Positions 39,502-63,956 of a DNA stretch of 64,000 bases are shown in pieces. The stretch lies in contig JAJFFC010000012.1 in the NCBI GenBank assembly GCA_021776795.1, positions 174,724-238,723 on the forward strand. The letters run 5' to 3'. The stretch's first letter is position 1; each line of letters begins with the position of its first letter. A program made the position numbers and the translations under genes. A model generated the notes under the pieces. The model was given only the letters and a program-made list of their open reading frames with translations, did no database searches and was not told the origin of the DNA. This stretch comes from Planctomycetota bacterium. Lineage in GTDB: Bacteria > Planctomycetota > UBA1135.

Positions 39502-40395
39502 CTACGACGCGACCAGAATCGGCACCTGCATGCCGTCAAGAGAGCATTCTAGCGGGGTGTCGCCAACATGGTCGCCATCGACCTGAAGCGGGGTGGGGGT
39601 GGCCCCCTCCAGGCGCAGGTGGCGAATCTGCCGCACCATCACGCCGGGTAGCTTGGGCAACTGGCCTCCGGCGGCGGCAATCGCATACAAACTGCCTTTG
39701 AGAAGATTGATGTTATCGAACAACACGAGCTCCCACAGGCCGTCATCGAGGGTCGACTCGCACAAGCGAAATTGTGGACTGCCGTAGCTGCCGAGGCCGC
39801 TGAAGATGCCGTAAGAAAACACGCCGAGTTCCTCGCCATCGGCAAACACCCGCTGTGGCGCAGGATCCCAATGGCGCAAGGCTTCGCCGATGTACTTAAG
39901 GTAATGGGCCTTGGTGATGGGGCCACTGCGTTGGGCATCCATGCGGCGCATGAGCTCGCCGTCGAAACCGAAGCCCAAGCACAAAAAGGCCTGGCGCTTG
40001 CGTTGCGCACGCTCGTGGCGATAGCGCACGGTGGCGACATCGAGTAGCTGTCGTTCGCCGCGTTCTACGAGCACGACGGCATCTTCTGGGCGCGAACTCA
40101 ACTTGAGCCGATGGCCCAGCAGGTTGGCGGTGCCTAATGGCGAGATGACCAGCGGGGGCGATTCGTTCCCAAGGCCATCCAATACCGCGGAAAGGGTACC
40201 GTCACCGCCGACCACGACTAAACGCTCGGCCCAAGTGCAGGCTTGGTTTGTCCACGCCACGGCATCGGCGCGACTGCGCCCTGGGTGAAAGCCGACTTGA
40301 TGTCCGCGAGCGCTCAACAGCTCGGCAATCCGTCGCGCACGTTCAGTGCCGAGGCCACGGCCGGAGCCGGGGTTGGCGAGAACCTCAATCTTCAT
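39502..40395 (-). CDS. diacylglycerol/lipid kinase family protein (YegS/BmrU-like)
   Basis: 297 aa. NPGSGRG and the DAGK catalytic motif VVVGGDGTLSAV. Confidence 0.8.
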   Translation of the reverse strand: MKIEVLANPGSGRGLGTERARRIAELLSARGHQVGFHPGRSRADAVAWTNQACTWAERLVVVGGDGTLSAVLDGLGNESPPLVISPLGTANLLGHRLKLSSRPEDAVVLVERGERQLLDVATVRYRHERAQRKRQAFLCLGFGFDGELMRRMDAQRSGPITKAHYLKYIGEALRHWDPAPQRVFADGEELGVFSYGIFSGLGSYGSPQFRLCESTLDDGLWELVLFDNINLLKGSLYAIAAAGGQLPKLPGVMVRQIRHLRLEGATPTPLQVDGDHVGDTPLECSLDGMQVPILVAS

Positions 40396-45954: not shown

Positions 45955-46971
45955 GTGAGCTCGGTTTCCCGAATCATGCCCCCTGCCTCCTTTCGTGCCA
46001 CGGTCCCTGCGGATCTCGACGGCCAGCGCCTGGACAAGGTCGCTGTCGCCCTATTGGGGGCCTCAGTGTCCCGGAGCCGCCTTTCCAGCTGGATTCGTGA
46101 CGGACGCCTGACAGTCGACGGCGAAATCCTGCAAAAGCCGGGTTTGCTGGTGCTACAAGGCCAGGAGCTGGTCCTGGCACCACCCAATTTGGAAATTCCT
46201 GAGCCAGGGTCGGCCCTGGAGCCTGGAATCCTCTACGAAGACGAGCATCTTGCGGTCCTGGACAAACCCGCTGGCCTACCGATGCACGGCAATTCCCCCG
46301 GGGATTCACAAATGTCGGTGGCCAACTGGATGATGGCGCGTTATGGCAAGAGCCTTCCGATTGGCCAAGGTGCGGAGCGGCCGGGGATTGTCCACCGCCT
46401 CGACCGCGGCACTTCTGGAGCTTGCGTGGTGGCCTTTGATCGCCAAGTGTTCGAGGACCTGCAAGAGCAATTCGCCGAGCGGTCGGTGGAAAAGGAGTAT
46501 CACGCCTTGTGCTATGGCAATCCGCGCTTTCAGGGCGATTGGATCGATGCTCGCTTGCAGGCCGACCCCAAGCACCCGCAGCAGGTGCGCACCACCTCGC
46601 GGCAGGACCCAAGCACGCGTGACGCCATGACATGGTGGGAGCAGATGGAAACCTTCGATGGCTTTGTCTTGATGCGGGTGAAGCCCAAGACCGGGCGCAA
46701 GCACCAGATTCGCGTCCACCTGACTTCGATTGGCTGCCCGATTGTTGGCGATCCCTATTACCGCGCCCGCAACTACGGCTTGGGCATGCTGCCGGAAACT
46801 TGCCCCGAAGTGGAGCGCACGCTGTTGCACGCTGCGGTGATTGATTTTGAGCACCCGGTCGATGGCGGCCGCTTGCGCATCCAATCGGAGCATCCGCATG
46901 TGATGCGCGATGTCCTCGCGGTGTTGCGCAAAGAGCGCCCACTCATCGTAGAACCCAAGAAACGCAGTTGA
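45955..46971 (+). CDS. rluD: RluA-family 23S rRNA pseudouridine synthase (RluD-like)
   Basis: 338 aa. S4 domain (RLDKVAV...RSRLSSWIRDGRLTVDG), catalytic HRLDRGTSGACVVA, and GRKHQIRVHL. Confidence 0.85.
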   Translation: MSSVSRIMPPASFRATVPADLDGQRLDKVAVALLGASVSRSRLSSWIRDGRLTVDGEILQKPGLLVLQGQELVLAPPNLEIPEPGSALEPGILYEDEHLAVLDKPAGLPMHGNSPGDSQMSVANWMMARYGKSLPIGQGAERPGIVHRLDRGTSGACVVAFDRQVFEDLQEQFAERSVEKEYHALCYGNPRFQGDWIDARLQADPKHPQQVRTTSRQDPSTRDAMTWWEQMETFDGFVLMRVKPKTGRKHQIRVHLTSIGCPIVGDPYYRARNYGLGMLPETCPEVERTLLHAAVIDFEHPVDGGRLRIQSEHPHVMRDVLAVLRKERPLIVEPKKRS

Positions 46972-48461
46972 TTCGCCTCAGTCTGAGCATCCTTGCCGTC
47001 GGCTTTTTTGCCGGCAACACCTTTGCCCAGCTGGGTGGTGAAATCACCGGCGAATCGGCGAGTTCCGCAGGCACTGCTGGGGCATCGCAACTTCAGGGCG
47101 ATAGTTTGTTCGATGGCGCCAATAATCCGGCCACGGTGTTGGATTTATTCGGCCCCCGCAGTCGCCATCCGCAAGCGCGGTATCGTTTCGAGGTCTTAGG
47201 GCGGGCATTACGCCCCAATCTGACGCAGCGTGACTCCAGTGGAGCACTGATCGACCAAACTGTCGAGGACGGCTTCGGTCCCTGGCTGGGCATGGCAGGC
47301 TTGGCCGGCGATCGCGCGGCTTGGTCCCTCATGCTCCACCCCACTGCCGCGGGGGAGTATCAAGCGTTGCGCGATACCCAGTTGGAGATTGTCACCGTCA
47401 ACCCCGATGGCAGCGGTGGTCCGGGGCATGACCTGGTTGCCGTGGAAACCGAGCTGCTGCAGATTGCCTTGGATGGAGCCTTGGCTTGGCGGGTGAATCG
47501 AGAGTGGAACTTTGGCGTGGGATTGTCCTTGCGCCAAACCGACTTAACCACGGCCTCGGCCACGGAGGTGGGCTTAGACCAACTCAATGGCGCAATCCCA
47601 GACAGCCTCTCTGGCATTTTCGGCGACCTCAGTTGGGGCGAGTTGATCACCGACCTTGGTAGCGCACGCGGTGTCGATGCCTTCCAGGTCAACTTTCGCG
47701 GTGACGCCGATGCTGCCAAGCCGCAGTTGTTTTTGCAATTTGGCGGACGCTGGGAGCCAGATGACCGCACTCGCGTCGGCTTTTGGTATCGCCCACCCTC
47801 GAGCGCGACCAATCTCAAAGGGGAAGTCGATGTCGACCTGGGCTCAGACCTCGGTGCCTTTGTCGAAAGCCTAGAAAGCACCTTGAGTGTGGCTTTGCTC
47901 GATGATCCGACTTCGCACTACGATCTGAAAGTGGCCGGCATTCGCCTGCCGCAACAAGCCGGAGTGTCATGTATGCGCTACTTGCCACAAGGCCGCCGCA
48001 TTCATGCGCGCGCGGTGTGGACCGATTGGTCGGCATCCTTCTCCGGGTGGTCTGCCAGGTTGAGTAACCCGAGCAATCCAGAGTTCACTGAGTACCTCGG
48101 TGGCGATGGCTCGATTGATGTCGACCTTGGCCTATCGTGGAAAGACAGCCTAAGTTTGTCGGTCGGTGGAGAGCAAGACTTTGGTCAACGCTTCACAGTG
48201 CGCAGCGGTCTGGGGTGGGCGCGAAACCCCGTCGGCGGCGCCGTATTAGGTGGTTTGGCTCCTTACAACCAACTTCATGCCGCGGCAGGCGCTTCGTGGT
48301 GGGCCGCCCCCGAGGGGCATGTGGATTGGCACTTGGCGGCAGTGGTCGCTCTTCCGGAAAGCTGGACTTCCGACCGTAATCCAAGTTTCGAAGATCTCAG
48401 CCGCGACCGTTATCGCCAAAGCGTCTGGTCGCTGTTGTTGGCGATGACGGTGAGCTGGTAG
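46968..48461 (+). CDS. outer-membrane beta-barrel, FadL/TodX-like transporter family
   Basis: 497 aa with a TTG start (TTGA overlap with rluD). Signal MIRLSLSILAVGFFAGNTFAQ. GANNPATVL (NPA motif). Alternating beta pattern and a C-terminal aromatic residue (…TVSW). Confidence 0.55.
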   Translation: MIRLSLSILAVGFFAGNTFAQLGGEITGESASSAGTAGASQLQGDSLFDGANNPATVLDLFGPRSRHPQARYRFEVLGRALRPNLTQRDSSGALIDQTVEDGFGPWLGMAGLAGDRAAWSLMLHPTAAGEYQALRDTQLEIVTVNPDGSGGPGHDLVAVETELLQIALDGALAWRVNREWNFGVGLSLRQTDLTTASATEVGLDQLNGAIPDSLSGIFGDLSWGELITDLGSARGVDAFQVNFRGDADAAKPQLFLQFGGRWEPDDRTRVGFWYRPPSSATNLKGEVDVDLGSDLGAFVESLESTLSVALLDDPTSHYDLKVAGIRLPQQAGVSCMRYLPQGRRIHARAVWTDWSASFSGWSARLSNPSNPEFTEYLGGDGSIDVDLGLSWKDSLSLSVGGEQDFGQRFTVRSGLGWARNPVGGAVLGGLAPYNQLHAAAGASWWAAPEGHVDWHLAAVVALPESWTSDRNPSFEDLSRDRYRQSVWSLLLAMTVSW

Positions 48462-48463
48462 CG

Positions 48464-50089
48464 CTACGGCGTGTAAATCCGCGCCGCCGTGGTGGCTAGG
48501 CCAGAGTTCGACTCGCCGCCGCCGCAGTAGACCGTGCCATCTTCCAGAACATGGACCACGCCGCCGCCGTGTGTTTCCGGTAGCGAAGCGACCACGCTCA
48601 AGATGTTGTTGGGGTTGTCGTAAGTCCAGCAGGTGGAAATCGGCACCGGATCATCGAGGTCGCCCTTGGCGCCGCCGACAATCAAAGCGCGGCCATCTGG
48701 CAGTGTCACAATCGTATTGAAGGCCGAATCTTGGGTCAGGTCTGCCTTGGCCGAGTTGGTGTCGGTGGTCGGATTGTAGATTTCAGTTTTACGGATGGGG
48801 CCGATGTTAAAAATGTCGCCGCCAGCGCCGCCGGCCATGTACACCTTGCCGTTCTGCAGCAGCGTGATGCCACCGAGGGCACGCTTCGAACGCATGTCGG
48901 TGGCGTTGCTCCAGGCACCAGTGCCCGGGTTGTAAATCTGCATACCGTTACTGAAGTCTGGAATCGGTATGCCAAACACCGAGATGTGGGTGATGCCACC
49001 GGCGACGAGCCAACGGCCATCGGCCAGGGTGACTGCCATGGCACCAGCTTTCGGCTCATTCATGTTGGGCCCTGAGGTCCAGGTGTTGGTTGCCGGGTTA
49101 TAGATTTCGGTGGTCCGCAACGCGGTCCCCAGCAGGTCCGCGACATCGGCAACGTCGTGAGAATTATTGCCTTCGGTACCGCCCGCAATCAACACGCGCC
49201 CATCGGGCAAAACCGTCGCGGTGGCCGCAGCGCGGTAGCTGCTCATGTTGGCTGCGGCGCTCCAGGTCCCGGCAACCGGGTCGTAGATCTCGGCACTGCG
49301 CAAGACCTTGGTGTAGTGATTGGCGCCACTGCCATAAGGGCCTTGAATGCCACCCATGACCATGAAACGACCGTCTTGTAGCTTCACGGTGTTGTGGAAG
49401 GCGCGCGACTCCGCCATGGTTCCCGGCAACAGTTCGTGCTTGCCGCTAGCGGTATCGAACTTCCAGGCTTGATCAATCGTGGGGTACGGTGTGGAGGTGT
49501 CCGTGAGCAGGGCGGGGCCGCCGCCGCAGATGAACAGACTTAAGGCGCCTTGAGCGCCCTCTTCCCATTCCACCCAGGACAGATTGCTCGAAGCCAGAGG
49601 CGTGACATCTTCGGCACCTTGCCAACGATCTGCCTGGTTCATACTCAGCGCGCGTAGATTCGAAAAATCGTCATAGCGCGCGGCACCAGAGGCGCCTGGC
49701 TCGGTCCAGCCCTGCCAGTACACCGTGGTGTCGAGCATGCCAGGGTTATTGGGAATGGTGAAGGAAAAGGTCCATTCGCCTTGGGCATCGGAAATGCCGC
49801 TGAAACGATTGCCGCCTGCGGCTAGGTCGACTCCGACGGCGAGCTGGTCGAGCGGATCCCCGGTTTGGCCGACGAGGAAAGCGGAGCCAGTGTTTTGGAA
49901 ACTGGGAATCAGCAACACCGGGACATTGGGGGTGAGTCCGGTCAGGGTGGCCGAGGCAGGCTGACCGATGACATCGCCGTAGGTCATCAGTTCACTGGTA
50001 GCGTTGGCCTGGGCACTCAAACTACTACTCAGAAGCAGAAAGGTGAACAGGACGAGGGCAAGGGGGCGGGAGGCAGTCATGGGGCTCAT
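48464..50089 (-). CDS. secreted Kelch-repeat beta-propeller protein
   Basis: 541 aa. Signal LALVLFTFLLLSSSLSAQA. Repeated DGR(F/V/W/A)-h-h-x-GG blades (DGRFMVMGG, DGRVLIAGG, DGRWLVAGG, NGKVYMAGG, DGRALIVGG). Confidence 0.8.
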   Translation of the reverse strand: MSPMTASRPLALVLFTFLLLSSSLSAQANATSELMTYGDVIGQPASATLTGLTPNVPVLLIPSFQNTGSAFLVGQTGDPLDQLAVGVDLAAGGNRFSGISDAQGEWTFSFTIPNNPGMLDTTVYWQGWTEPGASGAARYDDFSNLRALSMNQADRWQGAEDVTPLASSNLSWVEWEEGAQGALSLFICGGGPALLTDTSTPYPTIDQAWKFDTASGKHELLPGTMAESRAFHNTVKLQDGRFMVMGGIQGPYGSGANHYTKVLRSAEIYDPVAGTWSAAANMSSYRAAATATVLPDGRVLIAGGTEGNNSHDVADVADLLGTALRTTEIYNPATNTWTSGPNMNEPKAGAMAVTLADGRWLVAGGITHISVFGIPIPDFSNGMQIYNPGTGAWSNATDMRSKRALGGITLLQNGKVYMAGGAGGDIFNIGPIRKTEIYNPTTDTNSAKADLTQDSAFNTIVTLPDGRALIVGGAKGDLDDPVPISTCWTYDNPNNILSVVASLPETHGGGVVHVLEDGTVYCGGGESNSGLATTAARIYTP

Positions 50090-50595: not shown

Positions 50596-51042
50596 ATGAG
50601 TCAGGTTCTCGGTATCGACCATCTCGCGATCGCGGTTGACGACCTCGACGCCGCCACGGCGCTGTGGCGCGACCGCTTTGGCTTGCGCGAAGGCGCACGA
50701 GAAGTGGTTGCCGAGCAAAAGGTCGAAGTGCAAATGATGTACGCCGGGGAAACTCGCGTAGAACTGGTTTGCCCCATTGCCGACGACTCGCCCATGAGCG
50801 GATTCCTGAGTAAACGCGGCCCTGGCTTGCATCACGTCGCGCTTGCCGTTGACAATTGCGAAGCGGCGATCGAAAGCGCCCAAGCGGGTGGCGCGCGCAT
50901 GCTCGATGAAGCGCCTCGAGTTGGCGCACATGACACCCGTATCGCCTTTGTGCATCCGCGCTCGAGCGGCGGCGTCCTGACTGAATTGGTCGAGGGCGGC
51001 GAAGGATTTGCCTCGATTTCCCCCGACAACAAACAAGCATGA
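50596..51042 (+). CDS. mce: methylmalonyl-CoA epimerase (VOC/glyoxalase fold)
   Basis: 148 aa. [49 protein letters not shown] overlap with the carboxyltransferase gene. Confidence 0.85.
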
Positions 51043-52586
51043 GTGTGGACCCTTTCCAGAAGCTGCGCGAGAAGCGGCAGCAGGCGCAACTTGGTGGTGG
51101 CGAAAAGCGCATTGAAGCACAGCACGCCAAAGGCAAGTTGACGGCACGCGAGCGGATTGAGCTGCTGCTCGACCAGGGCTCTTTTGAAGAGATTGATCCC
51201 TTCCGACGGCATCGTTCGAACAACTTCGGCCTCGAAAAAGATCGGCCTCTGGGCGATGGCGTCGTGGTCGGAACGGGCGCCATCGACGGCCGCGCGGTCG
51301 CCGTGTTCGCCCAAGACTTCACCGTGTTTGGCGGCAGTTTGGCCGAAGAGCATGCAGCGAAGATCTGCAAGGTCATGGACCTTGCCATGACCCACGGCCT
51401 GCCCATTATCGGTCTCAACGATTCCGGCGGCGCGCGCATCCAAGAAGGCGTGGTTTCGTTGGCGGGCTATTCGGAAATCTTCCTGCGCAACACCTTGGCC
51501 AGTGGCGTGGTGCCGCAAATCAGCGCAATCATGGGGCCATGTGCTGGCGGTGCGGTCTATTCGCCTGCTTTGACCGACTTTATTCTGATGGTCGAAGGCT
51601 CTAGCTATATGCACATCACCGGTCCCGATGTGGTCAAGACCGTGACTCATGAAGAGGTGACCTCGGAAGAGCTGGGTGGCGCCGAAGTGCACGAAACCAT
51701 TAGTGGTACCAGCCACTTCACCTGCGAAAGCGATGCTGAATGTCTGGCGCGGATTCGCCGCTTGTTGTCCTTCTTGCCGCAGAACAACACCGAAGAAGCG
51801 CCCCGTGTCGAAAGCGAGGACCCGGTAGAGCGTCGCGACGAAAGTCTCGATACCATCATCCCGGAATCGCCGAATCAGCCCTATGACATCAAGAAGGTGA
51901 TTCACGCCGTGGTCGACGACGGCGACTTCATGGAAATCCAGCAAGGCTTTGCCGCCAACATCGTGATTGGTTTGGCGCGCTTAGGCGGCCGTAGTATCGG
52001 CATTGTTGCCAATCAACCTGCGGTCCTGGCCGGCGTGCTGGACATCGATGCCAGTGAGAAAGCCGCGCGCTTTGTGCGCTTCTGCGATTGCTTCAATATC
52101 CCGATTGTCACCTTGGAAGACGTCCCTGGCTTCTTGCCAGGCACGAAACAAGAGCATGGCGGCATCATTCGCCGTGGCGCGAAGCTCCTGTACGCTTACT
52201 GCGAAGCTACGGTGCCGAAGTTGACCGTAGTCACACGAAAGGCTTATGGCGGCGCCTATTGCGTGTTGTCGTCGAAGCCCACGCGGGGCGATTGGAATGT
52301 GGCCTGGCCATCGGCGGAAATCGCCGTGATGGGGGCAGAAGGAGCGGCGAAGATCATCCACCGCCGCGCCATCGCCGCTGCGGACGATCCCGCGGCCGAA
52401 GAAGCCGCGCGCATCGAAGAATACAAAGAGATGTTCGCCAACCCGTATCTGGCTGCCGAACGGGGCCTGATTGATGACATCATCTTGCCCTCGGAAACGC
52501 GGCCGCGCTTGATTCGCGCCTTGGACCTGTTGGCGAATAAGCGCCAGGCCAATCCGCCGAAGAAGCATGGCTCCATCCCGCTCTAA
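51039..52586 (+). CDS. pccB: propionyl-CoA carboxylase beta subunit / methylmalonyl-CoA carboxyltransferase
   Basis: 515 aa. [45 protein letters not shown] and [10 protein letters not shown]. Confidence 0.92.
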
Positions 52587-54129
52587 ACCCGTGACTGCGT
52601 CCACTCCGCGTCCCATTCGCAAGCTGCTCATCGCCAACCGGGGCGAGATTGCCGTGCGCATTCAGCGCAGTTGTCGCGACCTCGGCATCGAAACCGTGGC
52701 GATTTACTCCGATGCCGACCGCAATGCCCTGCATGTGCGTTTTGCCAATCAAGCCGTGGCGCTTGGTGGCAACACTCCGGCAGAGTCTTATCTGCGCGGA
52801 GACCGCATCATTGCCGCAGCCAAGGAAACTGGCGCCGATGCCATCCACCCTGGCTTTGGTTTCCTTGCCGAGAATGGTGAGTTCGCCGATGCCGTGGCCG
52901 CGGCCGGCCTGGCTTGGGTCGGTCCCACCGCCAAGTCCATGGAAATCATGGGCGACAAGTTGTCGTCGCGCCGCGCCATGGTCGCCGCCAAGGTTCCTGT
53001 GGTGCCAGGCACCACCGATGCTGTCGACGACCCCGCCGCCGCGCTGCGCATCGCCGAGGGCATCGGCTACCCAGTCATGCTCAAGGCCTCGGCCGGTGGT
53101 GGCGGAAAGGGCATTCGCGTCGTGCCCTCTGCGCAGGAAATGGAAAGTGCGTTCTCGACCGCGAGTGGCGAAGCGCAAAATGCCTTTGGCGATGGCCGCA
53201 TGTACCTCGAGAAGTTCTTGGTTTCGCCGCGGCACATCGAGATTCAAGTTTTAGGCGACAAACACGGCACCGTGCTGCACTTCGGTGAGCGTGAATGCAG
53301 CCTGCAACGGCGTCACCAAAAGCTGATTGAAGAGGCGCCGTCGCCAATCATCGACGAGGCTACCCGACAACGCATGGGCGAGGCTGCAGTCGCCGCTGCG
53401 CGTGCGGTGAACTACCACTCCGCTGGCACCGTTGAGTTTTTGTGGTCCCAAGGCGAGTTCTACTTCTTGGAAATGAACACGCGGATTCAAGTCGAACATG
53501 GCATTACCGAAGAGGTGTATGGCGTCGACTTGATTTCACAGATGATTCGCGTGGCGGCCGGCGAGAAGATCGATGATTGCGTTGGCCTCGTGCCGCGTGG
53601 ACATGCGATTGAAGTGCGGCTCAATGCCGAGGACCCAGACAACGGCTTCCTTCCGAGTTTAGGCACGGTGCGCAACTTGCGTTGGCCCGGCGGACCCGGG
53701 GTGCGGATTGACTCCGGTGTGTATCGCGGCATGGAAGTCACGCCCTACTACGACTCGATGTTGGCCAAGTTGATCGCCTTTGGCCGTGATCGCGAGCAAG
53801 CACGGCGCCGCATGCTCCGTGTGTTGCAAGAATTGCATGTTGGCGGAGTCAAGACCTCCGCCGGGATCGCCTTGCAGTTGCTGCAAACCGAAGCCTTTAT
53901 TACGGGCGACTACGACACCGGTTTCTTAGAGCGTTACGTGGAAGGCGGCCGTGAAGCCCCCAAGCGAGAAGTCACTGACGACCTAGAGCGTGTGGCCGCG
54001 ATTGTGGCCGCCCTTCATCGCCAACGCGCAGGAGCACGCCGCCCTGCCCGCAGTAGTCAAGAATCCTCAGGCGGCTCCAATTGGTTGCGTGCCGCCCGTC
54101 TCGAACAGCATGGGAGGAGTGGCCGATGA
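52567..54129 (+). CDS. biotin carboxylase subunit (stand-alone BC, no fused BCCP)
   Basis: 520 aa. [43 protein letters not shown] and [10 protein letters not shown]. Overlaps pccB by 20 nt. Confidence 0.92.
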
Positions 54130-54656
54130 AATACTTCCTGAAAACCCAAAGCGATCGCCGCCTGGAAGTGGAGGTTGCCGAAGATCAAGGCGAGCAGGGC
54201 TTTCGCCTTGTGGTCGATGGCGAAGAATGCCAAGCAGTCTTGCGCGATGTCGACCGTCTCGGCCAATACGCCCTTGTCCTCGATGGACGGAGCTATGCGG
54301 TTTCGATTGAAGAAACCGATGAGCAGCATTTATACGTCAACATTGCCGGCGAAAGCTGGCAGGTGATTGCCGAAGATGAACGGGAAAAGGCTGCTGGCGC
54401 CATTGCTGCGCAAGGTCCGCCGAAAGCCGAGCAAATCAAAGCGGCCATGCCAGGTGTGATTATCTCGGTGTCCGCCGAAGAAGGCCAGACCGTTGGAGCT
54501 GGCGAAACCGTTGCCGTGCTCGAAGCCATGAAGATGCAAAACGAAGTGCAAAGCCAACATGGCGGTGTCGTCGAAAGCCTGTTGGTGGCTAGCGGCGACC
54601 GCGTCGAGGCTGGGCAAGTTTTGATTAAGCTCGCACCAAATCCTGACGCCGAATAG
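54126..54656 (+). CDS. biotin carboxyl carrier protein with an N-terminal extra domain
   Basis: 176 aa from ATG 54126 (ATGA overlap with the BC gene). Biotinylation motif VLEAMKMQNEV. Confidence 0.85.
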   Translation: MKYFLKTQSDRRLEVEVAEDQGEQGFRLVVDGEECQAVLRDVDRLGQYALVLDGRSYAVSIEETDEQHLYVNIAGESWQVIAEDEREKAAGAIAAQGPPKAEQIKAAMPGVIISVSAEEGQTVGAGETVAVLEAMKMQNEVQSQHGGVVESLLVASGDRVEAGQVLIKLAPNPDAE

Positions 54657-56430: not shown

Positions 56431-58053
56431 ATGGAATTCCTGCGACGTCTCCTCCCTACCCTGGTGATTGCGCTGGCCGTCTGCTCCCTCACGCCAACGG
56501 CGCACGGGCAGATATACGCCATGCACTTCAAGGACCCCAAGCATGCCAAGGGGTACAAGAAAAATCTCTACGACCTCAACGGCGAGAGCGTGGTTCTGGT
56601 CGAAATCCGCGGCGGCATCGAGAACATCGATGGCGTCATGACCTGGCCCCAGAATGGTCGCGTGGAGTTTTATGTCCAGGACCCGGCCAACCCTTCCAAG
56701 TTGGCCTACAAGCTCGACGAAGAGGGCAACAAAGTTTCTGATACCAAGAGTTTGGTGATTGGCATTGGCGGCGAACGCTTGAAGGGCTTATCTCCCTTTT
56801 TGATTAACGAGAGTTTTTACACGCTGGCCAGAACCTATGAGCGCAAGCTCGCCACCATCGAGGCTTTGGAAGAGCGTCGTGAGGCTGCCGAGAAGGGTGG
56901 GCCAGCCTGGATGGCGGCGCAGACCTCGATTTCGCAGGAACTGACCTTGATGCAACTTTGGTTGCGCCAAACCGGGTATCCCAAGGCCGCAAACAAGTTG
57001 GATCGAGACTTAATGCGAGCACGCAAGTTGGCGAAGGAAGCCAAAGATTCGCGTGCAGCTCGGGCGCTCGAAAGCGTGAAGGAGATTGACACTCCGGAAA
57101 AGCTCACCGAGGTAGCCAAACGATTAGGGGGCTCGACGCTGGAGTTCCATGCCCAGGAATCGAAGCATCTGCGCATTCTCTATCACACCGGCATTGAAGA
57201 TGTCTTAGTGACGCATCTGCTCGAGCTTGGTGAACAAGCGATCGAGGACTACCGCAATCGCCATGTCGATCCTCACCTTTCCGAGACCTTCAAGGATACG
57301 ATTCCGGATGGTCGTTTGATTGAATGGTTCTTCTCTACCGATGACCGCATGCTGCAGGAACACCTGTGGATTGAGTACTACGGCTACGGTTGGGGGCCAG
57401 AGGCGCGCAAACGCGAGGCTTTGCAGTCCGCGGGTACCGGGCAAATGCGCAAGAACGAATACATTAGTTATTGGCGCACCGATGAGACCAGCGACCTCGA
57501 AGGCATCATCTTGCACACCACGGGTCATCAACTGGCACGTTGGCACTATGGCATCAAGGGCGATACCGCCGATTGGCTTGAAGAAGGCGCTGGCTATGAG
57601 CTGTCCTTCCGCTTGCTAGGTCGTAACAACGTGACTTGCCGTGCGTTTAAGCCACCCAAAAAGCTCGAAGGCACGGTGTCTACGGGCGATGGCCGCAAGA
57701 ACAAGGGCTCAGAAACCGTCACCAAGACCGTCATGCGTGGTTTGCAAGAAACCATGGCGCAGGTGGCTTTGGCTTCCCCGGTTCCCTTCCCGCGCTTGGC
57801 TCCGAAGCGCCTGTATGACTTTGGCAATGAAGATATGGCCAAGTCTTGGGCCTTCTACAATTTCTTGATTGGCAGTGGGGACATCCGCGGCGAACTTTGG
57901 CTGCGTCAGGTCACCAAGGCCGCACAGGCGCCGTCTACTTTCCAGAACAAGCTGCGCGAAATCACCGCGGAAGTTTATGGCTTCCAGGGCGATGCCATGG
58001 GTGGCTTGGAAGAAGCGTGGGCCGAGTGGACCCGCGACACCTACGGCCTCTAA
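56431..58053 (+). CDS. secreted protein with a degenerate zincin-like (DUF1570/peptidase-MA-like) motif
   Basis: 540 aa. Signal LLPTLVIALAVCSLTPTAHG. LHTTGHQLARW...DWLEEGAGYE resembles HE-x-x-HQ...W-x-x-EG-x-A-x-Y-x-E, with the catalytic Glu replaced by Thr. Confidence 0.5.
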   Translation: MEFLRRLLPTLVIALAVCSLTPTAHGQIYAMHFKDPKHAKGYKKNLYDLNGESVVLVEIRGGIENIDGVMTWPQNGRVEFYVQDPANPSKLAYKLDEEGNKVSDTKSLVIGIGGERLKGLSPFLINESFYTLARTYERKLATIEALEERREAAEKGGPAWMAAQTSISQELTLMQLWLRQTGYPKAANKLDRDLMRARKLAKEAKDSRAARALESVKEIDTPEKLTEVAKRLGGSTLEFHAQESKHLRILYHTGIEDVLVTHLLELGEQAIEDYRNRHVDPHLSETFKDTIPDGRLIEWFFSTDDRMLQEHLWIEYYGYGWGPEARKREALQSAGTGQMRKNEYISYWRTDETSDLEGIILHTTGHQLARWHYGIKGDTADWLEEGAGYELSFRLLGRNNVTCRAFKPPKKLEGTVSTGDGRKNKGSETVTKTVMRGLQETMAQVALASPVPFPRLAPKRLYDFGNEDMAKSWAFYNFLIGSGDIRGELWLRQVTKAAQAPSTFQNKLREITAEVYGFQGDAMGGLEEAWAEWTRDTYGL

Positions 58054-58065
58054 TTCGGCGAGCCT

Positions 58066-59859
58066 TTACTCCTTTGAGCGCAGGCGTTCCTTCTCGCGCA
58101 GGAGGCGCTTGCGCAGGCGCAAGGACTCTGGGGTGACCTCGAGCAGCTCATCGGCAGCAAGGTACTCTAGAAACTGTTCCAAGCTCAGCTGGCGTGGGGC
58201 GCGAATGCTTTCGGTGGTGTCCTTGCCGGCGGCGCGCATATTGCTCATTTTCTTGGCGCGGACCACGTTGACGGCAATGTCTTTGTCCTTGTTGTTCTCG
58301 CCGACGACCATGCCTTCGTAGATTTGGTCCCCGCCGGTCACAAAGAATACGCCACGGTCTTCTAAGTTGCGCAGGGAGTAGCCTGTCGCTTGGCCGCTAT
58401 CCGAAGCCACCAAAACGCCGCGGTGGCGGGTGATGATTTCTCCCGAATAGGGTCGGTACTGAGATGGAATCGAAGCCAAGACCCCTTCGCCGCGGCTCAA
58501 GGTAAGCACGGTGGAGCGGGCACCGAGCAAGCCACGCGTTGGGACTTCCATGTGCAGTGTGGCGCGATCGCCGCGGCGCTCCATGTCGGTGATTTCGGCA
58601 CCACGATTGCCGAAGAACTCAATCACCCGACCAACCGCATCTTCCGGCAAGTCGAGGCGGGCGTTCTCCCATGGCTCCTGCATCTTGCCATCGATTTCCT
58701 TGGTCAAGACGCGTGGTGAACCCACGGCGAACTCATATCCTTCACGGCGCATGTTCTCGATCAAAATGCCGAGGTGCAGGACACCACGGCCAGCGACCAA
58801 CATGCCGCCAGATTCGCCCTGGCGAATGCGCAATGCCGGGTCAATCATAGAGGCGCGATTGAGACGCTCTTGCACCTGGCGCGAAGTGACGAACTGCCCT
58901 TCTTTGCCGGCGAAGGGGGAGTCGTTGACGAGGAAAGCCATTTCAATCGTGGGCTCTTCCACGGTAATCGGCGGCAAAGGTTCCACCACCTCGAGATCGC
59001 AAAGGGAGTCCCCCAAGCCAAACTCGCCGAGGCCAGCAACCGAAGCAATGTCGCCAGCTTCGACGACCTCGGCATCTTGACGCTCGAGGCCGACGATGCG
59101 GTAGAGCTCCTTAATTTTGCCGCGTGTGCGCTTGCCATCGTTGTGGACCCAGGCGACCTCATCGCCTTTCCTCATGCGCCCGCGCAACACTCTGCCGATG
59201 CCAATGCGGCCGACGAAATCGGACCAGTCCAAAGTGGCGATTTGGAACCGTAGAGGGCCATCGGCGTCGACTTCGGGACCAGGGAAAACCTTGAGGATGA
59301 GGTCGAGCATCGGCGCCATGTCGGTGCCGGGGACATGCTCATCCATGCTCGCCCAACGGTCGCGGGCGGAGCAGTAAATCACCGGGAAATCCAGCGCCAG
59401 TTCATCGGCACCAAGCTCCACGAAGAGATCGAAGACTTCGCCAAGCACGGCATCGGCGCGTGCGTCTTGGCGGTCCATCTTGTTGACCACGACTAGGGGG
59501 CGCAGGTGATTCTCAAATGCTTTCTGAATCACAAAACGGGTTTGCGGCATGACGCCTTCGAAGGCATCGACGACCAGCAACACGCCATCGGCCATCGACA
59601 ACACACGTTCGACTTGACCACCAAAGTCGGCGTGGCCTGGGGTGTCAATCAAATTGACGCGCACCCCTTTCCAATCCAGCGAAGCATTCTTCGACAGAAT
59701 CGTAATGCCGCGCTCGCGTTCGAGGTCATTGCGGTCCATAACCCGGTCCGCACCTGCTTGGTTTCGGTCTAGACTTCCCGCGGCGCGGAATAGCCCATCA
59801 ACCAGGGTGGTTTTTCCATGGTCGACATGGGCGATGATCGCAACATTGCGGAGTTCCAT
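58066..59859 (-). CDS. typA: translational GTPase TypA/BipA
   Basis: 597 aa. [25 protein letters not shown] and VVNKMDR. EF-G-like domains. The ATG directly abuts the mlaD stop. Confidence 0.97.
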
Positions 59860-60969
59860 TTAGAAGTTGCCGAAAAGCAGTTGAGTGAAGGTGCTGATGG
59901 GTTGCGCTTCGCGCGCATCCTCGAGTTGGCCATTGAGAGAACGGAGCGCTTGCACCAATTCTTCGTAGGCTTCATCTTCACTGAGCAGTCGCCCGAGGGA
60001 GCCTTCGCCGTCTTTGAGGCGGCGCGAGACTTCGGACAAGTTGGCAAGCAGTTCGCTTGCGTCATCGGCCAGGTCCTGATCAGAGATGAGTGTTCCAAGC
60101 AGGCCGGCGCCGCCCTCCTGGGCATCATGGAGAATCAGGTCAAGGCGGCCGGAAGCTTGCTCCAAATTATGCAGTAGCGCGGTGGCGTCTTCGCGCATAC
60201 CGGGATCATTTAATAGAGCGCCAATCAGGCCCTCGCCATCGCGGGCTGCGGTGAGCACGCCACGCAGGTCACCGGCGGCCGCGCCAGCATCTTCAATCAG
60301 GGCGATGACCTTCTCACGCGTGGCCTCGTCCTGGAGCAGGGCGCCGAGGGTGCCCTTGCCGTCTTTAAGGTCCTCCATCAGGGTGGAGAGGTCTAAAACC
60401 GTGCTGCTGACGTTGTCACGCAGCTCCTCGTCGTGAATGAGCGCGCCGAGGACACCTTTGCCTTGGGCGACGTCATCGGAGGCCGTGACCAAGTTGTCGA
60501 TTAGCTGCTTGACGCCCTCGCGGTTCTCGCCAATCAGGGAGTTTAGGCTTTCGAGCGCGGATTCATCGACGGTGCCCACCAGTTCGATGCCTTCAGCGAG
60601 GGGTGGATTTTCGCTCGGACCGGGGTCAATTTCGACCACGCGGCCACCCAAGACCGTAAATTCGGCCACACGCATGGTGTATCCCTCGTGCAAATTCGGC
60701 GGCTCTTCAAACTCCATGCTCACGCCAATCCGCGTGGCGAAGGGGCGCTGATCGTAATACTGAATATCGCGCACGGTGCCAATCGGGCGCCCTGCAACCA
60801 GGACCGCGTCGCCATTCTTCAGGCCACGAGCGTCGGGGAAGTAGGCCTCGAGTTGGGTCTTGTCGGCAAGGCTAAAGCCAGTCAAGACGATGGTGTAGTA
60901 AAGCAACAGGGCCAGTGCGCCAAAGAAGGCGAGGCCAAGAGCAAAATCGCGGCTACGAGTCGATTCCAT
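59860..60969 (-). CDS. mlaD: MCE/MlaD-family periplasmic lipid-transport protein with a C-terminal repeat region
   Basis: 369 aa from ATG 60969, one nt after the mlaF stop (the ORF extends to 61110). TM anchor [20 protein letters not shown] domain [17 protein letters not shown], then five G-x-G-x-LG-x-L-h-x-D repeats. Confidence 0.8.
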
Positions 60970-60970
60970 G

Positions 60971-61699
60971 TCAATCAAGGGCGGCGCCAAGGAAAGTCTT
61001 GACGCGCGGGTGGTCGGAGTTGAGGACGTCGGTGGGTGGGCCGGCGATGAGGAACTGGCCATGTTCAAATACAGCCAAAGTGTCGGCGACGGTGACGGCG
61101 CAACTGACACTGTGGGTGACCGTGACCGAGGTCATCCCGAGCTCTTCTTTGAGGCGGCGCATCATTTTGGAAATGCTCGCCGACATCTCTGGGTCGAGCC
61201 CTGCCTCGGGCTCGTCATAAAGGATGATCTTGGGTTCGGTGACCAATGCGCGAGCGAGGCCCACACGTTTTTGCATGCCTCCGGAAATCTCACTCGGCAG
61301 CTTTTCGTGCGCCTCTTCCATCTGCACTAAGCCCAAAACCTTCTCGACTTGAGCGCGGATGTCCTTCTCCGATTGCGAAGTGGTTTCGCGTAGAGGAAGG
61401 GCCACATTGTCGTAGACCGAAAGCCAGTTGATTAGGGCGGAATGCTGGAATAGATAGCCCATGTCCATGCGCAAGCGTTGTAGGGCTTCTCGGTTATGGA
61501 TGTTCACGGTTTGGCCGAGGACCTCGACCTTGCCCTGATCTGGCTCTAATAGCCCAATCAGGTGCTTCAAAATCACACTCTTGCCGGAGCCGGAAGGGCC
61601 CATGATGACCAGCGATTGACCCTCATCGACCTCAAAGTTGAGGCCTTGCAATACCTTCTGCTTACCGAAGGCCTTGTGTACATCGATCATGCGAATCAT
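60971..61699 (-). CDS. mlaF: ABC transporter ATP-binding protein, MlaF-like
   Basis: 242 aa. Walker A GPSGSGKS, signature LSGGMQKRVGLARAL, Walker B ILYDEPEAGLD. Confidence 0.9.
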   Translation of the reverse strand: MIRMIDVHKAFGKQKVLQGLNFEVDEGQSLVIMGPSGSGKSVILKHLIGLLEPDQGKVEVLGQTVNIHNREALQRLRMDMGYLFQHSALINWLSVYDNVALPLRETTSQSEKDIRAQVEKVLGLVQMEEAHEKLPSEISGGMQKRVGLARALVTEPKIILYDEPEAGLDPEMSASISKMMRRLKEELGMTSVTVTHSVSCAVTVADTLAVFEHGQFLIAGPPTDVLNSDHPRVKTFLGAALD

Positions 61700-62490
61700 G
61701 TGTACACAATCTTGCCGAGGAAGAAGTTCAAGACAATGATCAAGATAATCGAGTTGCGTACAGCAGAGCGCGTCGATTCTCCCACGCCACTAGCGCCGTG
61801 GCGTGCGCGCAGGCCACTGGCGCAGCCAACCACGGCAATCGCAAAGCCGAAGATGGTGGCTTTAATCAATCCGGAATACACCGAACGTGGCAAGCCAGCA
61901 AAACTGCGATCGGACAATGCGGAGAGTGCGTTGCGCACATAGCCGTCGAAATCGAGACCAAGTTGGGTATAGGCAATGATGCCGCCACCCACAATGCCAA
62001 TGATGTTGGCAAAGATGGTCAGGATTGGGGCCATTAAGGTCAGCGCCAAGATGCGTGGCAACACTAAATAACTGGTGACATCGACCGACATCACTTCCAG
62101 CGCGGTCACTTCTTCCTGCACGCGCATCGTGCCGATTTCCGCAGCCATAGCACTGGCAACCGAAGCGGCAAGGATGACGGCAGTCATGACCGGCCCCATT
62201 TCGCGCACCATCGACACCGCCACCGCAAGGCCCACGGCCTCTTGTTGGCCATATCGGGCCAGCTCAAAGCCGAGCTGTAGCGACAGAATCATGCCGATGA
62301 AAAAGCTCACAAAGAGCACCACCGGAGCGGACTTAATCCCGCCCAAATGCATTTGGTCGAACAACAGTCGCCGACGCTTGGGCAAATGGTGCAAGCGCGC
62401 CAAAGTCCGCCCGGCCACGCCCATGGCGAAGCCGGCGTTCTCGATGGCGGGAGCTAGCAGGGTAGCCCCAGTGCGGGAAATGAAGTTCAT
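61696..62490 (-). CDS. mlaE: ABC transporter permease, MlaE-like
   Basis: 264 aa with the typical MlaE/Ttg2B pattern (VREMGPVMTAVILA, IGTMRVQEEVTALEVM). 4-nt overlaps at both ends. Confidence 0.9.
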   Translation of the reverse strand: MNFISRTGATLLAPAIENAGFAMGVAGRTLARLHHLPKRRRLLFDQMHLGGIKSAPVVLFVSFFIGMILSLQLGFELARYGQQEAVGLAVAVSMVREMGPVMTAVILAASVASAMAAEIGTMRVQEEVTALEVMSVDVTSYLVLPRILALTLMAPILTIFANIIGIVGGGIIAYTQLGLDFDGYVRNALSALSDRSFAGLPRSVYSGLIKATIFGFAIAVVGCASGLRARHGASGVGESTRSAVRNSIILIIVLNFFLGKIVYT

Positions 62491-63956
62491 GGCTGCTCGA
62501 CAGGGGCGAGACGATGGATATCTGGCCAGCCAGGTCCCGGGAAAGCGGGAGCCTCTAGACCGCCATCTTCACCACTTCTGGTGCGGATGAGCCCAAATAA
62601 CCACGAAGAGTGTACGGTGCCGTCGGGTTCGGTCCAACGACCGCCAATGATGGGCATGCTCCAGCGCTGATGCCCGCCGGCTTCGACTTCGTGGTAGAGG
62701 TTGAACCAGGCCCTTTTTTCTTTGACCGGGATCGGCTCAGGCACACTGCGGGCATGGCGCACCCACACCTCATAGAGCCAGCCGAAGCTGCGCGAGAGGT
62801 TGTCCGGTTCCAGCAGAATCGGAATGCCGAGGTCAAACACCCGAAGCAATTCACGCCGGCCCTGGTCGAAGCGGTACGAGGTAAAAGGCCAAATCCGCAA
62901 GTGCCGCTGCTTGCGCCCATCGTCGCGGGTGGTGGTCATATTCATGAACAAAGGCACAAAGTAATGGCCTTCGCGCTCCATGTTGTTGAACTGATCTGTG
63001 CGATGCCAAAAGAACGGCCACAGCACCGAGGTGTACTCGGTTTGTTCATTCTCATAATGTAACCAGAAGGGCAGCACGCGGGAGAGCTTGCGTTCTTCAT
63101 TGCGCCCACCTTCTTCCATTTTGATCAAGGGCCAAATACCCCATGACGAATAGCCGGAGCTCGGCCGTTTGGCCCAACCAAAGATTGGCGCCAAAATCGT
63201 TTGCGCTAAATAATCATCTTGGGTGGTGCGCCCATAAAACGGCCATAACATCCAGGCATTCTGCGGATGCTTGCGGTCGAGGTTGTTCTCGGCTTGGGTC
63301 CAAAACGGCCACAAGATGTACTTACGACGGTATTTGCCCGTGACTTCGGTTTCGCCGTAGAAGGGGAAGGCATGCCAGCCTACTTCGCTGCCGCGGACTT
63401 TGCCAAACAAAGGCCAGAGCCAATGGGTGCTGTGCCGCTCTTCCTTGTGATTCTCCAGGTACAACGGAAACAGGAAAAAGCTGAACTCGTCGTAGGTCAG
63501 GAAGTCGCGGCCGGTGCCAACGAAGGGGAAGAACCAAAAGTAGTCTTCCAAGCCATCGGAGCTAGAGCCGCCTGCAATCAGCCAGAACAGTAGCGACCAA
63601 TCATTGTCGCGGACGCCATCGGCACGCACCTCGGAACGGTAGGACCACAACGGGAATAGGCGGGCGTACGTGCGCGGGCGGTCTGGGTCATATTCATACA
63701 AACCCAAGCCGGCGAGTAGGCCAGCGCGGACGCGGCCATCGCCAAACACTTCGCGCCACATCAAGGGCTTGAGTGCCCACAAGATATCGTCGTCCTCGCG
63801 GTGATATTCCAGCAGGCCACCAAGGGCTTCGGCATGCTGGTAATCCGGCGCGGTGTGGCGGCTAATCAAGGGTGCCAGGTGCATTTCGGCATCTGGCGCG
63901 GCGCAAGACCCCAAGGCAACAGCCAATGCCAGGGCCAGACGTCTAAGGACGGACAT
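62487..63956 (-). CDS. lipoprotein built from about 15 [LFIV]-[WFAKVL]-P-[LFI]-hydrophobic repeats (unknown family)
   Basis: 489 aa. Signal plus lipobox LALAVALGSC. Motif Pro at residues 29, 64, 102, 144, 164, 182, 198, 217, 239, 257, 276, 296, 314, 335 and 357. Its stop overlaps the mlaE start. Confidence 0.55.
   Translation of the reverse strand: MSVLRRLALALAVALGSCAAPDAEMHLAPLISRHTAPDYQHAEALGGLLEYHREDDDILWALKPLMWREVFGDGRVRAGLLAGLGLYEYDPDRPRTYARLFPLWSYRSEVRADGVRDNDWSLLFWLIAGGSSSDGLEDYFWFFPFVGTGRDFLTYDEFSFFLFPLYLENHKEERHSTHWLWPLFGKVRGSEVGWHAFPFYGETEVTGKYRRKYILWPFWTQAENNLDRKHPQNAWMLWPFYGRTTQDDYLAQTILAPIFGWAKRPSSGYSSWGIWPLIKMEEGGRNEERKLSRVLPFWLHYENEQTEYTSVLWPFFWHRTDQFNNMEREGHYFVPLFMNMTTTRDDGRKQRHLRIWPFTSYRFDQGRRELLRVFDLGIPILLEPDNLSRSFGWLYEVWVRHARSVPEPIPVKEKRAWFNLYHEVEAGGHQRWSMPIIGGRWTEPDGTVHSSWLFGLIRTRSGEDGGLEAPAFPGPGWPDIHRLAPVEQP

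Follow-up and report, generated by a model that had tools for sequence, protein, structure and literature searches.

MlaA (VacJ), a lipoprotein associated with MlaFED-type transporters, is an alpha-helical ring in the inner leaflet of the outer membrane, where it sits on OmpC/F and works via the soluble MlaC and a short MlaD. In the PqiABC system of E. coli and the PA3211-PA3214 system of P. aeruginosa, the gene of the lipoprotein (PqiC and PA3214, respectively) and that of a needle-type MCE protein share an operon. PqiC measures about 190 aa and has an alpha/beta fold. In chloroplasts, TGD4 is a non-MlaA link of the TGD1-3 core to the outer membrane. The small PqiC assembles into a homo-octameric ring, and PA3211-14 pairs its lipoprotein and needle MCE protein with a MlaE/MlaF-like ABC transporter (PMC13631591). 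Needle-type MCE systems can use outer-membrane lipoproteins, the known folds of which are only MlaA-like and PqiC-like, and mycobacterial Mce1 has no identified outer-membrane partner (PMC13631591). The usual arrangement is an MlaEFD-only system with a long MlaD, and in the Veillonella parvula type of long MlaD a C-terminal outer-membrane beta-barrel is another non-MlaA link to the outer membrane (PMC10665443). This C-terminal barrel is completely absent from the MlaD of PVC bacteria, and FCB bacteria are likewise without a MlaD barrel (PMC10665443). The outer-membrane end is therefore unexplained in exactly those phyla that carry the lipoprotein described below. The way in which phospholipids travel from one membrane of diderm bacteria to the other is still debated, and in most phyla the ancestral MlaEFD 'bridge' has an undescribed outer-membrane end.

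The window analyzed here is a contig stretch of 64,000 nucleotides from a member of the Planctomycetota. Its features of interest are given below in the order of transcription, with the parts of a product listed after its gene.

62487..63956, minus strand: lipoprotein CDS, 489 aa, first gene of the operon, with a beta-hairpin-repeat product
63903..63956, minus strand: signal peptide and lipobox (MSVLRRLALALAVALGS-C18) with Ala at +2, from an alignment of 52 homologues
62880..63878, minus strand: 15 [WF]-x-[LVF]-[WF]-P-[FL]-[FYW]-G hairpin repeats (aa 27-359), from the motif count and the AlphaFold2 (AF2) model
62880..63533, minus strand: core of the repeat array with a 19-aa period (aa 142-359)
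62490..62879, minus strand: C-terminal subdomain (aa 360-489) with about nine predicted strands and a helix (384-395), co-varying with the N-terminal hairpins
62523..62549, minus strand: C-terminal motif P-A-F-P-G-P-G-W-P (aa 470-478), invariant and confined to the Planctomycetota clade
61696..62490, minus strand: mlaE permease gene (PF02405, E=5e-68; TIGR00056 above cut-off)
60971..61699, minus strand: mlaF-type ABC ATPase gene (PF00005, E=9e-34; MlaF equivalog among the matches)
59860..60969, minus strand: gene of the MlaD/MCE protein (PF02470), 369 aa from the ATG at 60969
59863..59901, minus strand: conserved hydrophobic C-terminal tail of MlaD, a candidate contact for the lipoprotein or the outer membrane
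58066..59859, minus strand: typA/bipA GTPase gene (Pfam GTP_EFTU and BipA_C), 0 nt after the mlaD stop

The locus encodes a Mla/MCE transporter, with a MlaE permease, an ABC ATPase and an MCE-domain protein (PF02470, E=6e-11) found together. The TGA stop of the lipoprotein gene overlaps the ATG of mlaE by 4 nt (ATGA, 62487-62490), as the initial annotation had reported, and mlaF overlaps mlaE by 4 nt as well; these overlaps argue for co-translation and so favor the earlier proposal that the lipoprotein is made together with MlaEFD. The third codon position GC content of the lipoprotein gene (GC3 = 0.69) is similar to that of the adjacent genes. A scan of 35 ORFs of the window, with all those of 100-350 aa from a greedy set without overlaps among them, yielded no member of the MlaA, MlaC or STAS families; this agrees with the reported absence of MlaA, MlaB and MlaC from the window. 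The gene typA is probably co-transcribed with the mla operon in the closer Planctomycetota subclade only, TypA following MlaD only where the identity of the lipoprotein to that of the window is 37-69%.

The MlaD encoded here is a 'needle' protein, long, Mce1-like and without a barrel. It consists of a TM helix, an MCE domain and a helical needle region of about 230 aa with five DGxGxLGxLLxD repeats of about 38 aa each, and helices are predicted by AF2 over residues 138-367. The family PF28544 (Helical_needle) is present in the precomputed annotation of 119 of 120 MlaD homologues among the matches listed. Regarding structural comparisons with Foldseek, the best whole-length matches were Mce1A-F (8fed, 8fef), and the N-terminal part matched MlaD with a TMt of 0.7. 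The combination of TM helix, MCE domain and helical needle is that of mycobacterial Mce1 (8FED/8FEE/8FEF), the ABC core of which also has MlaE-like permeases; Mce1, however, is built from six different MCE subunits, whereas here a single MlaD gene, the product of which is presumably a homohexamer, is accompanied by a lipoprotein. The C-terminal tail of MlaD ('REAxP[IV]SxFxxxLFGxF') is conserved in about 80 loci of all clades, Kiritimatiellia included. A longer MlaD ORF of 416 aa, starting from the GTG at 61110, was rejected, because it would overlap mlaF by 140 nt and the homologues measure 368-370 aa.

The 489-aa ORF at the head of the operon begins with a signal peptide that ends in the [LVI]-x-[GAS]-C lipobox of an SPII lipoprotein, and lipidation is predicted. 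Cys18 and Ala19 are kept in at least 90% of the 52 aligned homologues, and position -1 of the lipobox is G, A or S in all of them. With Ala at +2, the protein is without the inner-membrane retention residue of the E. coli type. The protein is very rich in aromatic residues (Trp 5.5%, F+W+Y 16%). A regular-expression search for [LFIVA]-x-P-[LFI]-x yielded exactly 15 motifs, with the motif prolines at residues 29, 64, 102, 144, 164, 182, 198, 217, 239, 257, 276, 296, 314, 335 and 357; shuffling the residues 5000 times gave 0.75 motifs on average and five at most. The prolines are spaced by 35, 38 and 42 and then by 16-22 residues, with a mean of 19.4 aa in the core, and a Fourier analysis of hydrophobicity across the family (residues 140-375) peaked at a period of 19.3 aa (power 993 vs. 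515 for the 99.9% shuffle quantile). Of the 15 motif prolines, 13 show no variation among the 52 aligned homologues and P239 is conserved in at least 90% of them; P276 lies below both thresholds. Within the C-terminal motif, P470, P473, G474, P475 and G476 are invariant, and A471, F472 and P478 are conserved in at least 90%. This PAFPGPGWP-type motif by itself retrieved 121 relatives in representative genomes; the scan of contigs with it sampled the Planctomycetota-type clade only (a few MAG records are named otherwise). Thus, the initial annotation was right about the ORF, the lipobox, the number and positions of the motif prolines and the core period of about 19 aa, but its counts for the residue preceding the proline (seven Trp, three Phe) have to be corrected to six Trp and four Phe.

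The AF2 model of the lipoprotein is all-beta and of very high confidence (pLDDT 93.8, pTM 0.82), with about 45 short strands of 3-8 residues, most of them 5-7, and one helix of 12 residues (384-395). As modeled, the body of the protein is a long antiparallel beta-meander in which 15 aromatic proline turns ([WF]-P-[FL]-[FYW]) run along one edge of the sheet: each motif forms a 'base' turn of 3-4 residues between one hairpin and the next, with polar or charged residues at the opposite tips. Regarding the question of whether the protein is a solenoid, propeller or barrel, the model shows an all-beta meander of hairpins, unlike any known propeller or barrel. Hydrophobic residues are clustered at the base turns only. 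The aromatic motif residues, as the sole consistently hydrophobic positions, may therefore form the protein's own core instead of a lipid path. Covariation was determined by mean-field DCA with 423 sequences (Meff 345). The top pairs are hairpin contacts and reproduce the hairpin pairings of the AF2 model independently. The pair 46-418 ranks third overall, 36-424, 26-422 and 67-398 are also high, and the block between the N- and C-terminal parts holds 37 pairs vs. 19 expected. This covariation suggests a closed fold; other long-range pairs are noisy and compatible with a ring, a spiral or a stacked arrangement.

Comparisons of the lipoprotein with the Pfam and NCBIfam profiles yielded no family at E<=1, and a sequence search of the PDB yielded no match at E<=10. 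The precomputed annotation with the newest Pfam release was empty for all 240 homologues among the matches listed, and no description of the family was found in the literature searched. Foldseek searches of the PDB and BFVD with the model gave no global fold match (TM <= 0.2); the local resemblances among the matches listed were to amphipathic or single-layer hairpin sheets (TM 0.1-0.2, rmsd 15-45 Å). MlaA/VacJ (PF04333) was rejected, since there is no profile match and the model is all-beta vs. the alpha-helical ring of MlaA. There was likewise no profile match to MlaC (PF05494). Regarding PqiC-like proteins (ABC_trans_aux; PqiC, PA3214, XCC0632), neither a Pfam match nor a PDB sequence match at E<=10 was obtained, and the PqiC entries 8Q2C, 2IQI and 6OSX were absent from the best 50 of 602 Foldseek PDB matches (E<=10). 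Propeller, LptE, BamB and choline-binding solenoid folds were dismissed because Foldseek gave only local hairpin-sheet likeness (TM <= 0.2), and known hairpin repeats (MORN, YD/Rhs, choline-binding, Kelch/WD40) because no Pfam repeat model matches and the Foldseek TM is likewise <=0.2. An integral outer-membrane barrel of the MlaD-fused or TGD4/LptD-like kind would need amphipathic strands of at least about nine residues, whereas the predicted strands are mostly of 5-7; no OMP structure was found among the same best 50 of 602 PDB matches. The statement of the initial annotation that the protein matches neither MlaA/VacJ nor a known repeat family was thus upheld by Pfam, NCBIfam, PDB sequence and Foldseek searches, and no confident match to a characterized family unrelated to lipid transport emerged from Pfam, NCBIfam, the PDB or Foldseek on the PDB and BFVD. 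The lipoprotein defines a new beta-hairpin repeat without a Pfam model.

The family comprises 195 close homologues and 2150 representative clusters, and occurs in a deep lineage of Planctomycetota, in Kiritimatiellia and Lentisphaerae, in 'bacterium B17' and in one 'Deltaproteobacteria' MAG. Saltatorellus ferox Poly30 carries the gene as Poly30_33310. The order lipoprotein gene-mlaE-mlaF-mlaD was observed in 86 of 86 testable loci of a tblastn survey, and mlaE-mlaF-mlaD lies directly downstream in all ten gene-call loci of full-length family members; taken together, the two surveys place the lipoprotein gene directly upstream of mlaE-mlaF-mlaD in 90 of 90 testable loci (full-length members of about 450-650 aa), usually with a spacing of 0-300 nt or an overlap. 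Homologues are therefore linked to mla genes throughout the testable set. Note that the 86 tblastn loci are not independent events, as the wider neighborhood is syntenic within the Planctomycetota. For this reason the independent evidence for linkage comes from the four loci with the same order outside that phylum (Kiritimatiellia, Lentisphaerae, 'bacterium B17' and the 'Deltaproteobacteria' MAG), two of which have two flanking genes in common. The loci of Kiritimatiellia, 'bacterium B17' and the 'Deltaproteobacteria' MAG have no flanking genes in common with the window locus. Regarding outlying members, the 'Deltaproteobacteria' homologue (P0219) is without the lipobox Cys and has an N-terminal hydrophobic segment instead, followed by an acidic, Pro-rich linker of about 190 aa before the beta domain. 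The hairpin unit of the lipoprotein also builds a repeat protein of 1767 aa (P0160), which does not adjoin mla genes.

The locus resembles PqiC/PA3214 in that a lipoprotein gene shares an operon with the gene of a needle-type MCE protein, and in the role proposed here at the outer-membrane end of the needle. It differs from PqiC in that the lipoprotein is a single chain of 489 aa with 15 internal beta-hairpin repeats and that its gene is the first of the operon. As with MlaA, a lipoprotein is associated with a MlaFED-type transporter, the association here being drawn from operon linkage; unlike MlaA, the protein is all-beta, does not match PF04333 and is paired with a long needle-type MlaD, with no MlaC among the window ORFs scanned. 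In contrast to the MlaD barrel and TGD4, which are integral transmembrane barrels, it is a separate, putatively lipid-anchored protein with predicted strands too short to span a bilayer. The local antiparallel hairpin-after-hairpin arrangement with units of about 20 aa recalls the central sheet of OspA, MORN, TCP10/G-box, the YD shell of teneurin/Rhs and the beta-belt of ApoB100, but the global shape differs and the [WF]-P-[FL]-[FYW] base turn is absent from these sheets.

On balance we regard it as probable, if narrowly so, that the lipoprotein is a periplasmic protein and a dedicated fourth component of the MlaE-MlaF-MlaD system that acts at its outer-membrane end, receiving the needle tip and passing lipid. 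[quoted passage not shown] The equivalent job would be that of MlaA in Proteobacteria, of PqiC/PA3214 in Pqi-type systems and of the fused barrel in the MlaD of Veillonella. The earlier suggestion of an outer-membrane or periplasmic partner of the Mla-type transporter gains support from the operon linkage in all 90 loci.

Three other explanations have to be weighed against a component at the outer-membrane end. Operon linkage implies the same machine but either end of it, and the protein could instead be an inner-membrane-anchored or periplasmic accessory subunit that surrounds or regulates the MCE ring or the needle base, like Mce-associated or LucB-type proteins. No reading of the sorting signal is possible in PVC bacteria such as Planctomycetota and Kiritimatiellia, and the Cys-less hydrophobic segment of P0219 could anchor in the inner membrane; the long linker of the same protein, however, suits reaching away from that membrane, the needle-type MlaD is without another identified outer-membrane partner, and Pfam, PDB sequence and Foldseek searches revealed no similarity to known Mce accessory proteins. 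We consider such a subunit unlikely. Somewhat more doubtful still is a tethered lipid carrier or substrate receptor, which would hand cargo (phospholipid, hopanoid/sterol or other) to MlaD in the manner of MlaC and form no fixed bridge. A needle-type MCE protein is thought to render soluble carriers needless (PMC10665443), and 489 aa is very large for a carrier. The protein is nevertheless very aromatic with an unbroken row of 15 W/F-P-F/L turns, no MlaC was found among the scanned window ORFs, and its local Foldseek likeness is to sheets of the amphipathic or single-layer type, such as the ApoB100 beta-belt, although likeness at TM <= 0.2 is no evidence of a common function.

The use of the hairpin unit in P0160, away from mla genes, indicates that the repeat is not Mla-specific and would fit a structural or surface lipoprotein of the envelope (an outer-membrane tether or adhesin-like protein) whose sole tie to mlaEFD is co-transcription and which takes no direct part in lipid transport. 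Against this stands the position of the mla genes directly downstream in 90 of 90 loci from at least four lineages, which is rare for functionally unrelated genes, and we hold this explanation to be very improbable.

Continuing with a component at the outer-membrane end, we tentatively propose that the family may be a third, structurally new class of outer-membrane lipoprotein partners of MCE transporters, beside the MlaA-like and PqiC-like ones, in which a single-chain, 15-fold hairpin array would close upon itself and cap the hexameric MlaD needle, its W/F-Pro turns acting as a lipid gate into the outer membrane. If this is true, the needle cap would explain how the systems of the PVC superphylum with a long MlaD but no barrel bridge the envelope. 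As an operon-linked and confidently folded family of more than 2000 clusters, the lipoprotein is a concrete candidate for the missing outer-membrane component in Planctomycetota, Kiritimatiellia and Lentisphaerae.

The operon under study is headed by a gene for a lipoprotein rich in aromatic residues (Trp 5.5%, F+W+Y 16%). Its principal features are as follows.

Features of the lipoprotein-mla operon (coordinates, strand, description)
62487..63956, minus strand, lipoprotein CDS, 489 aa (ORF listing)
62523..62549, minus strand, C-terminal motif PAFPGPGWP, lipoprotein aa 470-478 (52-sequence alignment)
59860..60969, minus strand, mlaD, 369 aa from the ATG at 60969
59863..59901, minus strand, hydrophobic C-terminal tail of MlaD, aa 357-369, conserved in homologues
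58066..59859, minus strand, typA/bipA, 0 nt after the mlaD stop

A pattern search for [LFIVA]-x-P-[LFI]-x found exactly 15 motifs in the lipoprotein, all at the residues listed in the initial annotation, whereas shuffling of its residues (n=5000) gave a mean of 0.75 and a maximum of 5. The residue before the motif Pro is Trp in six copies and Phe in four, which corrects the sole error of that annotation, a count of seven and three. The period of about 19 aa proposed there was recovered both as the mean spacing of the last 12 copies (19.4 aa) and as the one dominant peak in the Fourier spectrum of hydrophobicity averaged over the family for residues 140-375, which lies at 19.3 aa and is roughly double the 99.9% shuffle quantile. 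The repeat is non-random and genuine; its consensus across the family is [WF]-x-[LVF]-[WF]-P-[FL]-[FYW]-G.

The first homologue search yielded 195 relatives, every one labeled 'hypothetical protein'; the named matches were from Planctomycetota MAGs, except for the cultured strain Poly30 (Saltatorellus ferox). When 1.84 billion representatives were searched with a profile, 2150 related clusters scored E<=1e-3, of which 816 reached E<=1e-30. A further profile made from the distant members returned 671 proteins, of which those named belonged to Kiritimatiellae/Kiritimatiellia, Lentisphaerae and 'bacterium B17'; an additional member was found in a 'Deltaproteobacteria' MAG. The window protein, which the initial annotation could not match to MlaA/VacJ or to a familiar repeat family, had no match in Pfam or NCBIfam or among PDB sequences. 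Among the relatives listed, none carried a Pfam family in the precomputed annotation (including PF28xxx accessions), and literature searches found no description of the family.

In an alignment of 52 lipoprotein sequences with identities as low as 28%, 13 of the 15 motif prolines were invariant, P239 was conserved in at least 90% and P276 fell below both thresholds. The lipobox Cys18 was conserved and was preceded at position -1 by G, A or S. Five positions of PAFPGPGWP were invariant and three more conserved in at least 90%, with W477 as the exception. This motif, which could be a docking peptide, is confined to the Planctomycetota clade and missing from the Kiritimatiellia clade.

The AlphaFold2 model computed from the same alignment is very confident (mean pLDDT 93.8, pTM 0.82, 423 of 489 residues at 90 or above) and is built of about 45 beta-strands, each 3-8 (mostly 5-7) residues long, and a single helix (384-395). 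When mapped onto the predicted secondary structure, h-[WF]-P-h forms a turn of 3-4 residues that links successive hairpins; every consistently hydrophobic position lies around this 'base' turn, and the turns at the far ends of the hairpins are polar and Gly-rich. The predicted hairpin pairings were also, independently of the model, the top signals in a mean-field covariation analysis (423 sequences, Meff 345). The strongest long-range pair, third overall, was 46-418, backed by 36-424, 26-422 and 67-398, and residues 20-75 shared 37 top long-range pairs with residues 390-470 versus 19 expected. These pairs, with which the high pTM agrees, suggest that the N-terminal hairpins pack against the C-terminal subdomain, closing the protein into a compact fold. 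Foldseek found no global match in PDB or BFVD (TM <= 0.2), and the weak local matches listed were only to hairpin-meander sheets or beta-propellers (OspA single-layer sheet, ApoB100 belt, teneurin YD shell, MORN, TCP10, WD40-type propellers).

In the window, the lipoprotein gene is followed by mlaE, mlaF (each with a 4-nt overlap), mlaD (1-nt gap, reckoned from the ATG at 60969) and typA/bipA (0-nt gap). The stop of the lipoprotein gene overlaps the mlaE start, as described in the initial annotation: its TGA and the mlaE ATG share the ATGA at 62487-62490. The order lipoprotein-MlaE-MlaF-MlaD was found at every full-length family member looked up, comprising five Planctomycetota proteins (six places, down to 28% identity), 'bacterium B17', a Kiritimatiellia genome, a Lentisphaerae contig and the 'Deltaproteobacteria' MAG. 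The flanking genes of the B17, Kiritimatiellia and 'Deltaproteobacteria' loci share nothing with those of the window locus; the B17 and Lentisphaerae loci have two upstream OTCase genes and an IMPDH gene in common, and the Lentisphaerae locus has a tyrosine-deacylase gene, as do the Planctomycetota loci. In a tblastn survey of homologue neighborhoods, a check proposed at the outset, MlaE lay directly 3' of the lipoprotein gene in 86 of 88 loci; in the other two the contig ends less than 150 nt from that gene. TypA lies 3' of MlaD in about 25 of these loci. All belong to the closer Planctomycetota clade, where the lipoprotein is 37-69% identical to that of the window, and no deeper clade has the arrangement. 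The pattern suggests that a ribosome-associated stress GTPase is co-transcribed with an envelope lipid transporter specifically in this lineage.

Three relatives are unusual in architecture. P0219, from the 'Deltaproteobacteria' MAG (locus L007, 8001..9962), is without the lipobox Cys and has an N-terminal hydrophobic segment and a duplicated acidic Pro/Ser/Glu-rich linker of about 190 aa ahead of the beta-repeat domain; mlaE-mlaF-mlaD still lie 3' of its gene. P0160 (JGI metagenome 3300071358) has 1767 aa, nearly all of them in dozens of copies of the [FW]-P-[FL]-[FYW] hairpin repeat (10 profile matches), and is flanked by glycoside hydrolase genes without adjacent mla genes, so the hairpin unit is more widespread than the Mla-linked orthologue group of about 450-650 aa. 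P0245 (850 aa) combines an FHA domain, a hydrophobic segment with an internal 'LSGC' lipobox-like site and the beta-repeat domain; this apparent fusion could be genuine or a gene-call artefact joining two genes.

By comparison with homologues, mlaD almost certainly begins with the ATG at 60969; a 416-aa ORF from the GTG at 61110 in the ORF listing was set aside. All 120 homologues of the window MlaD listed carried PF02470 and/or PF28544 (Helical_needle), and 118 carried both. In the AF2 prediction, residues 2-30 form a TM helix and residues 38-135 an MCE beta-domain; helices occupy 138-367, and there is no C-terminal barrel. The helices are broken at five DGxGxLGxLLxD repeats, each of which starts one of five tandem helical repeats of about 38 aa (aa 165-355); their Gly positions are near-invariant among homologues. 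Foldseek aligned the whole chain best with M. smegmatis Mce1A-F and matched its first 150 residues to MlaD at TMt ~0.7. The last ~17 residues, 'REAxP[IV]SxFxxxLFGxF', are kept in all clades examined, among them Planctomycetota and Kiritimatiellia, and less strictly in the 'Deltaproteobacteria' MAG. This tail may be the counterpart of the 'tiny 6-stranded barrel' or of the hairpin remnants described for barrel-less MlaD (PMC10665443).

Elsewhere in the window, a FadL/TodX-family outer-membrane transporter for hydrophobic compounds (46968..48461, plus strand; PF03349, E=6e-17) is consistent with a diderm envelope and adjoins a 541-aa Kelch-repeat protein (48464..50089, minus strand). A 540-aa ORF with a signal-peptide-like N-terminus (56431..58053, plus strand) is convergent with typA and has no Pfam match (best E=0.17). 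Genes of lipid and envelope precursor synthesis, for undecaprenyl-diphosphate synthase, CDP-diglyceride synthase (CTP_transf_1) and a DAGK-family lipid kinase, are located at 34706..36285 (plus strand) and 39502..40395 (minus strand), and an acyl-CoA carboxylase gene set at 51039..54656.

The ancestral form of the system, which is also the most common, is MlaEFD with a long MlaD; MlaABC is mostly proteobacterial, and the outer-membrane barrel of long MlaD is wholly missing in PVC and FCB bacteria (Grasekamp et al., PMC10665443). The outer-membrane partners known for MCE systems comprise a porin-like barrel and lipoproteins with either an MlaA-like or a PqiC-like fold; lipoproteins of the latter fold cap needle-type MCE proteins, including PA3213 with its MlaFE-like ABC transporter (PMC13631591, a 2026 JBC paper from the Ekiert/Bhabha laboratories). 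Compared with MlaA, PqiC, MlaC and barrel partners, the lipoprotein was negative in every sequence and fold test; with the PqiC type it shares two contextual features: it bears a lipoprotein signal, and its operon also encodes a needle-type MCE protein. [quoted passage not shown]

An unrelated envelope protein that is only co-transcribed is a less likely explanation of the operon; strong comparative evidence makes it highly probable that the lipoprotein is functionally tied to the transporter, and the initial, hedged reading of a Mla partner withstood all its own refutation tests. Where the protein would act is more evenly balanced. Its most probable position is the outer-membrane end of the MlaFED-needle machine, where it would receive the MlaD hexamer at its hydrophobic tip and present an aromatic, membrane-proximal surface to lipids in transfer. 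We give this outer-membrane location and tip docking about an even chance, because no other outer-membrane partner was identified, PqiC/PA3214 offers a precedent, the +2 residue is not Asp, and in the 'Deltaproteobacteria' homologue a long acidic Pro-rich tether takes the place of the lipid anchor. An accessory subunit near the inner membrane and a tethered lipid carrier remain the alternatives to such docking. The family is large and unannotated, with a new repeat and a fold without match in PDB and BFVD. The lipoprotein itself is without known relatives, an MCE transporter with an accessory lipoprotein is already known as a type of system, and the best-supported reading is that of a dedicated component of the MlaFED-needle machine.
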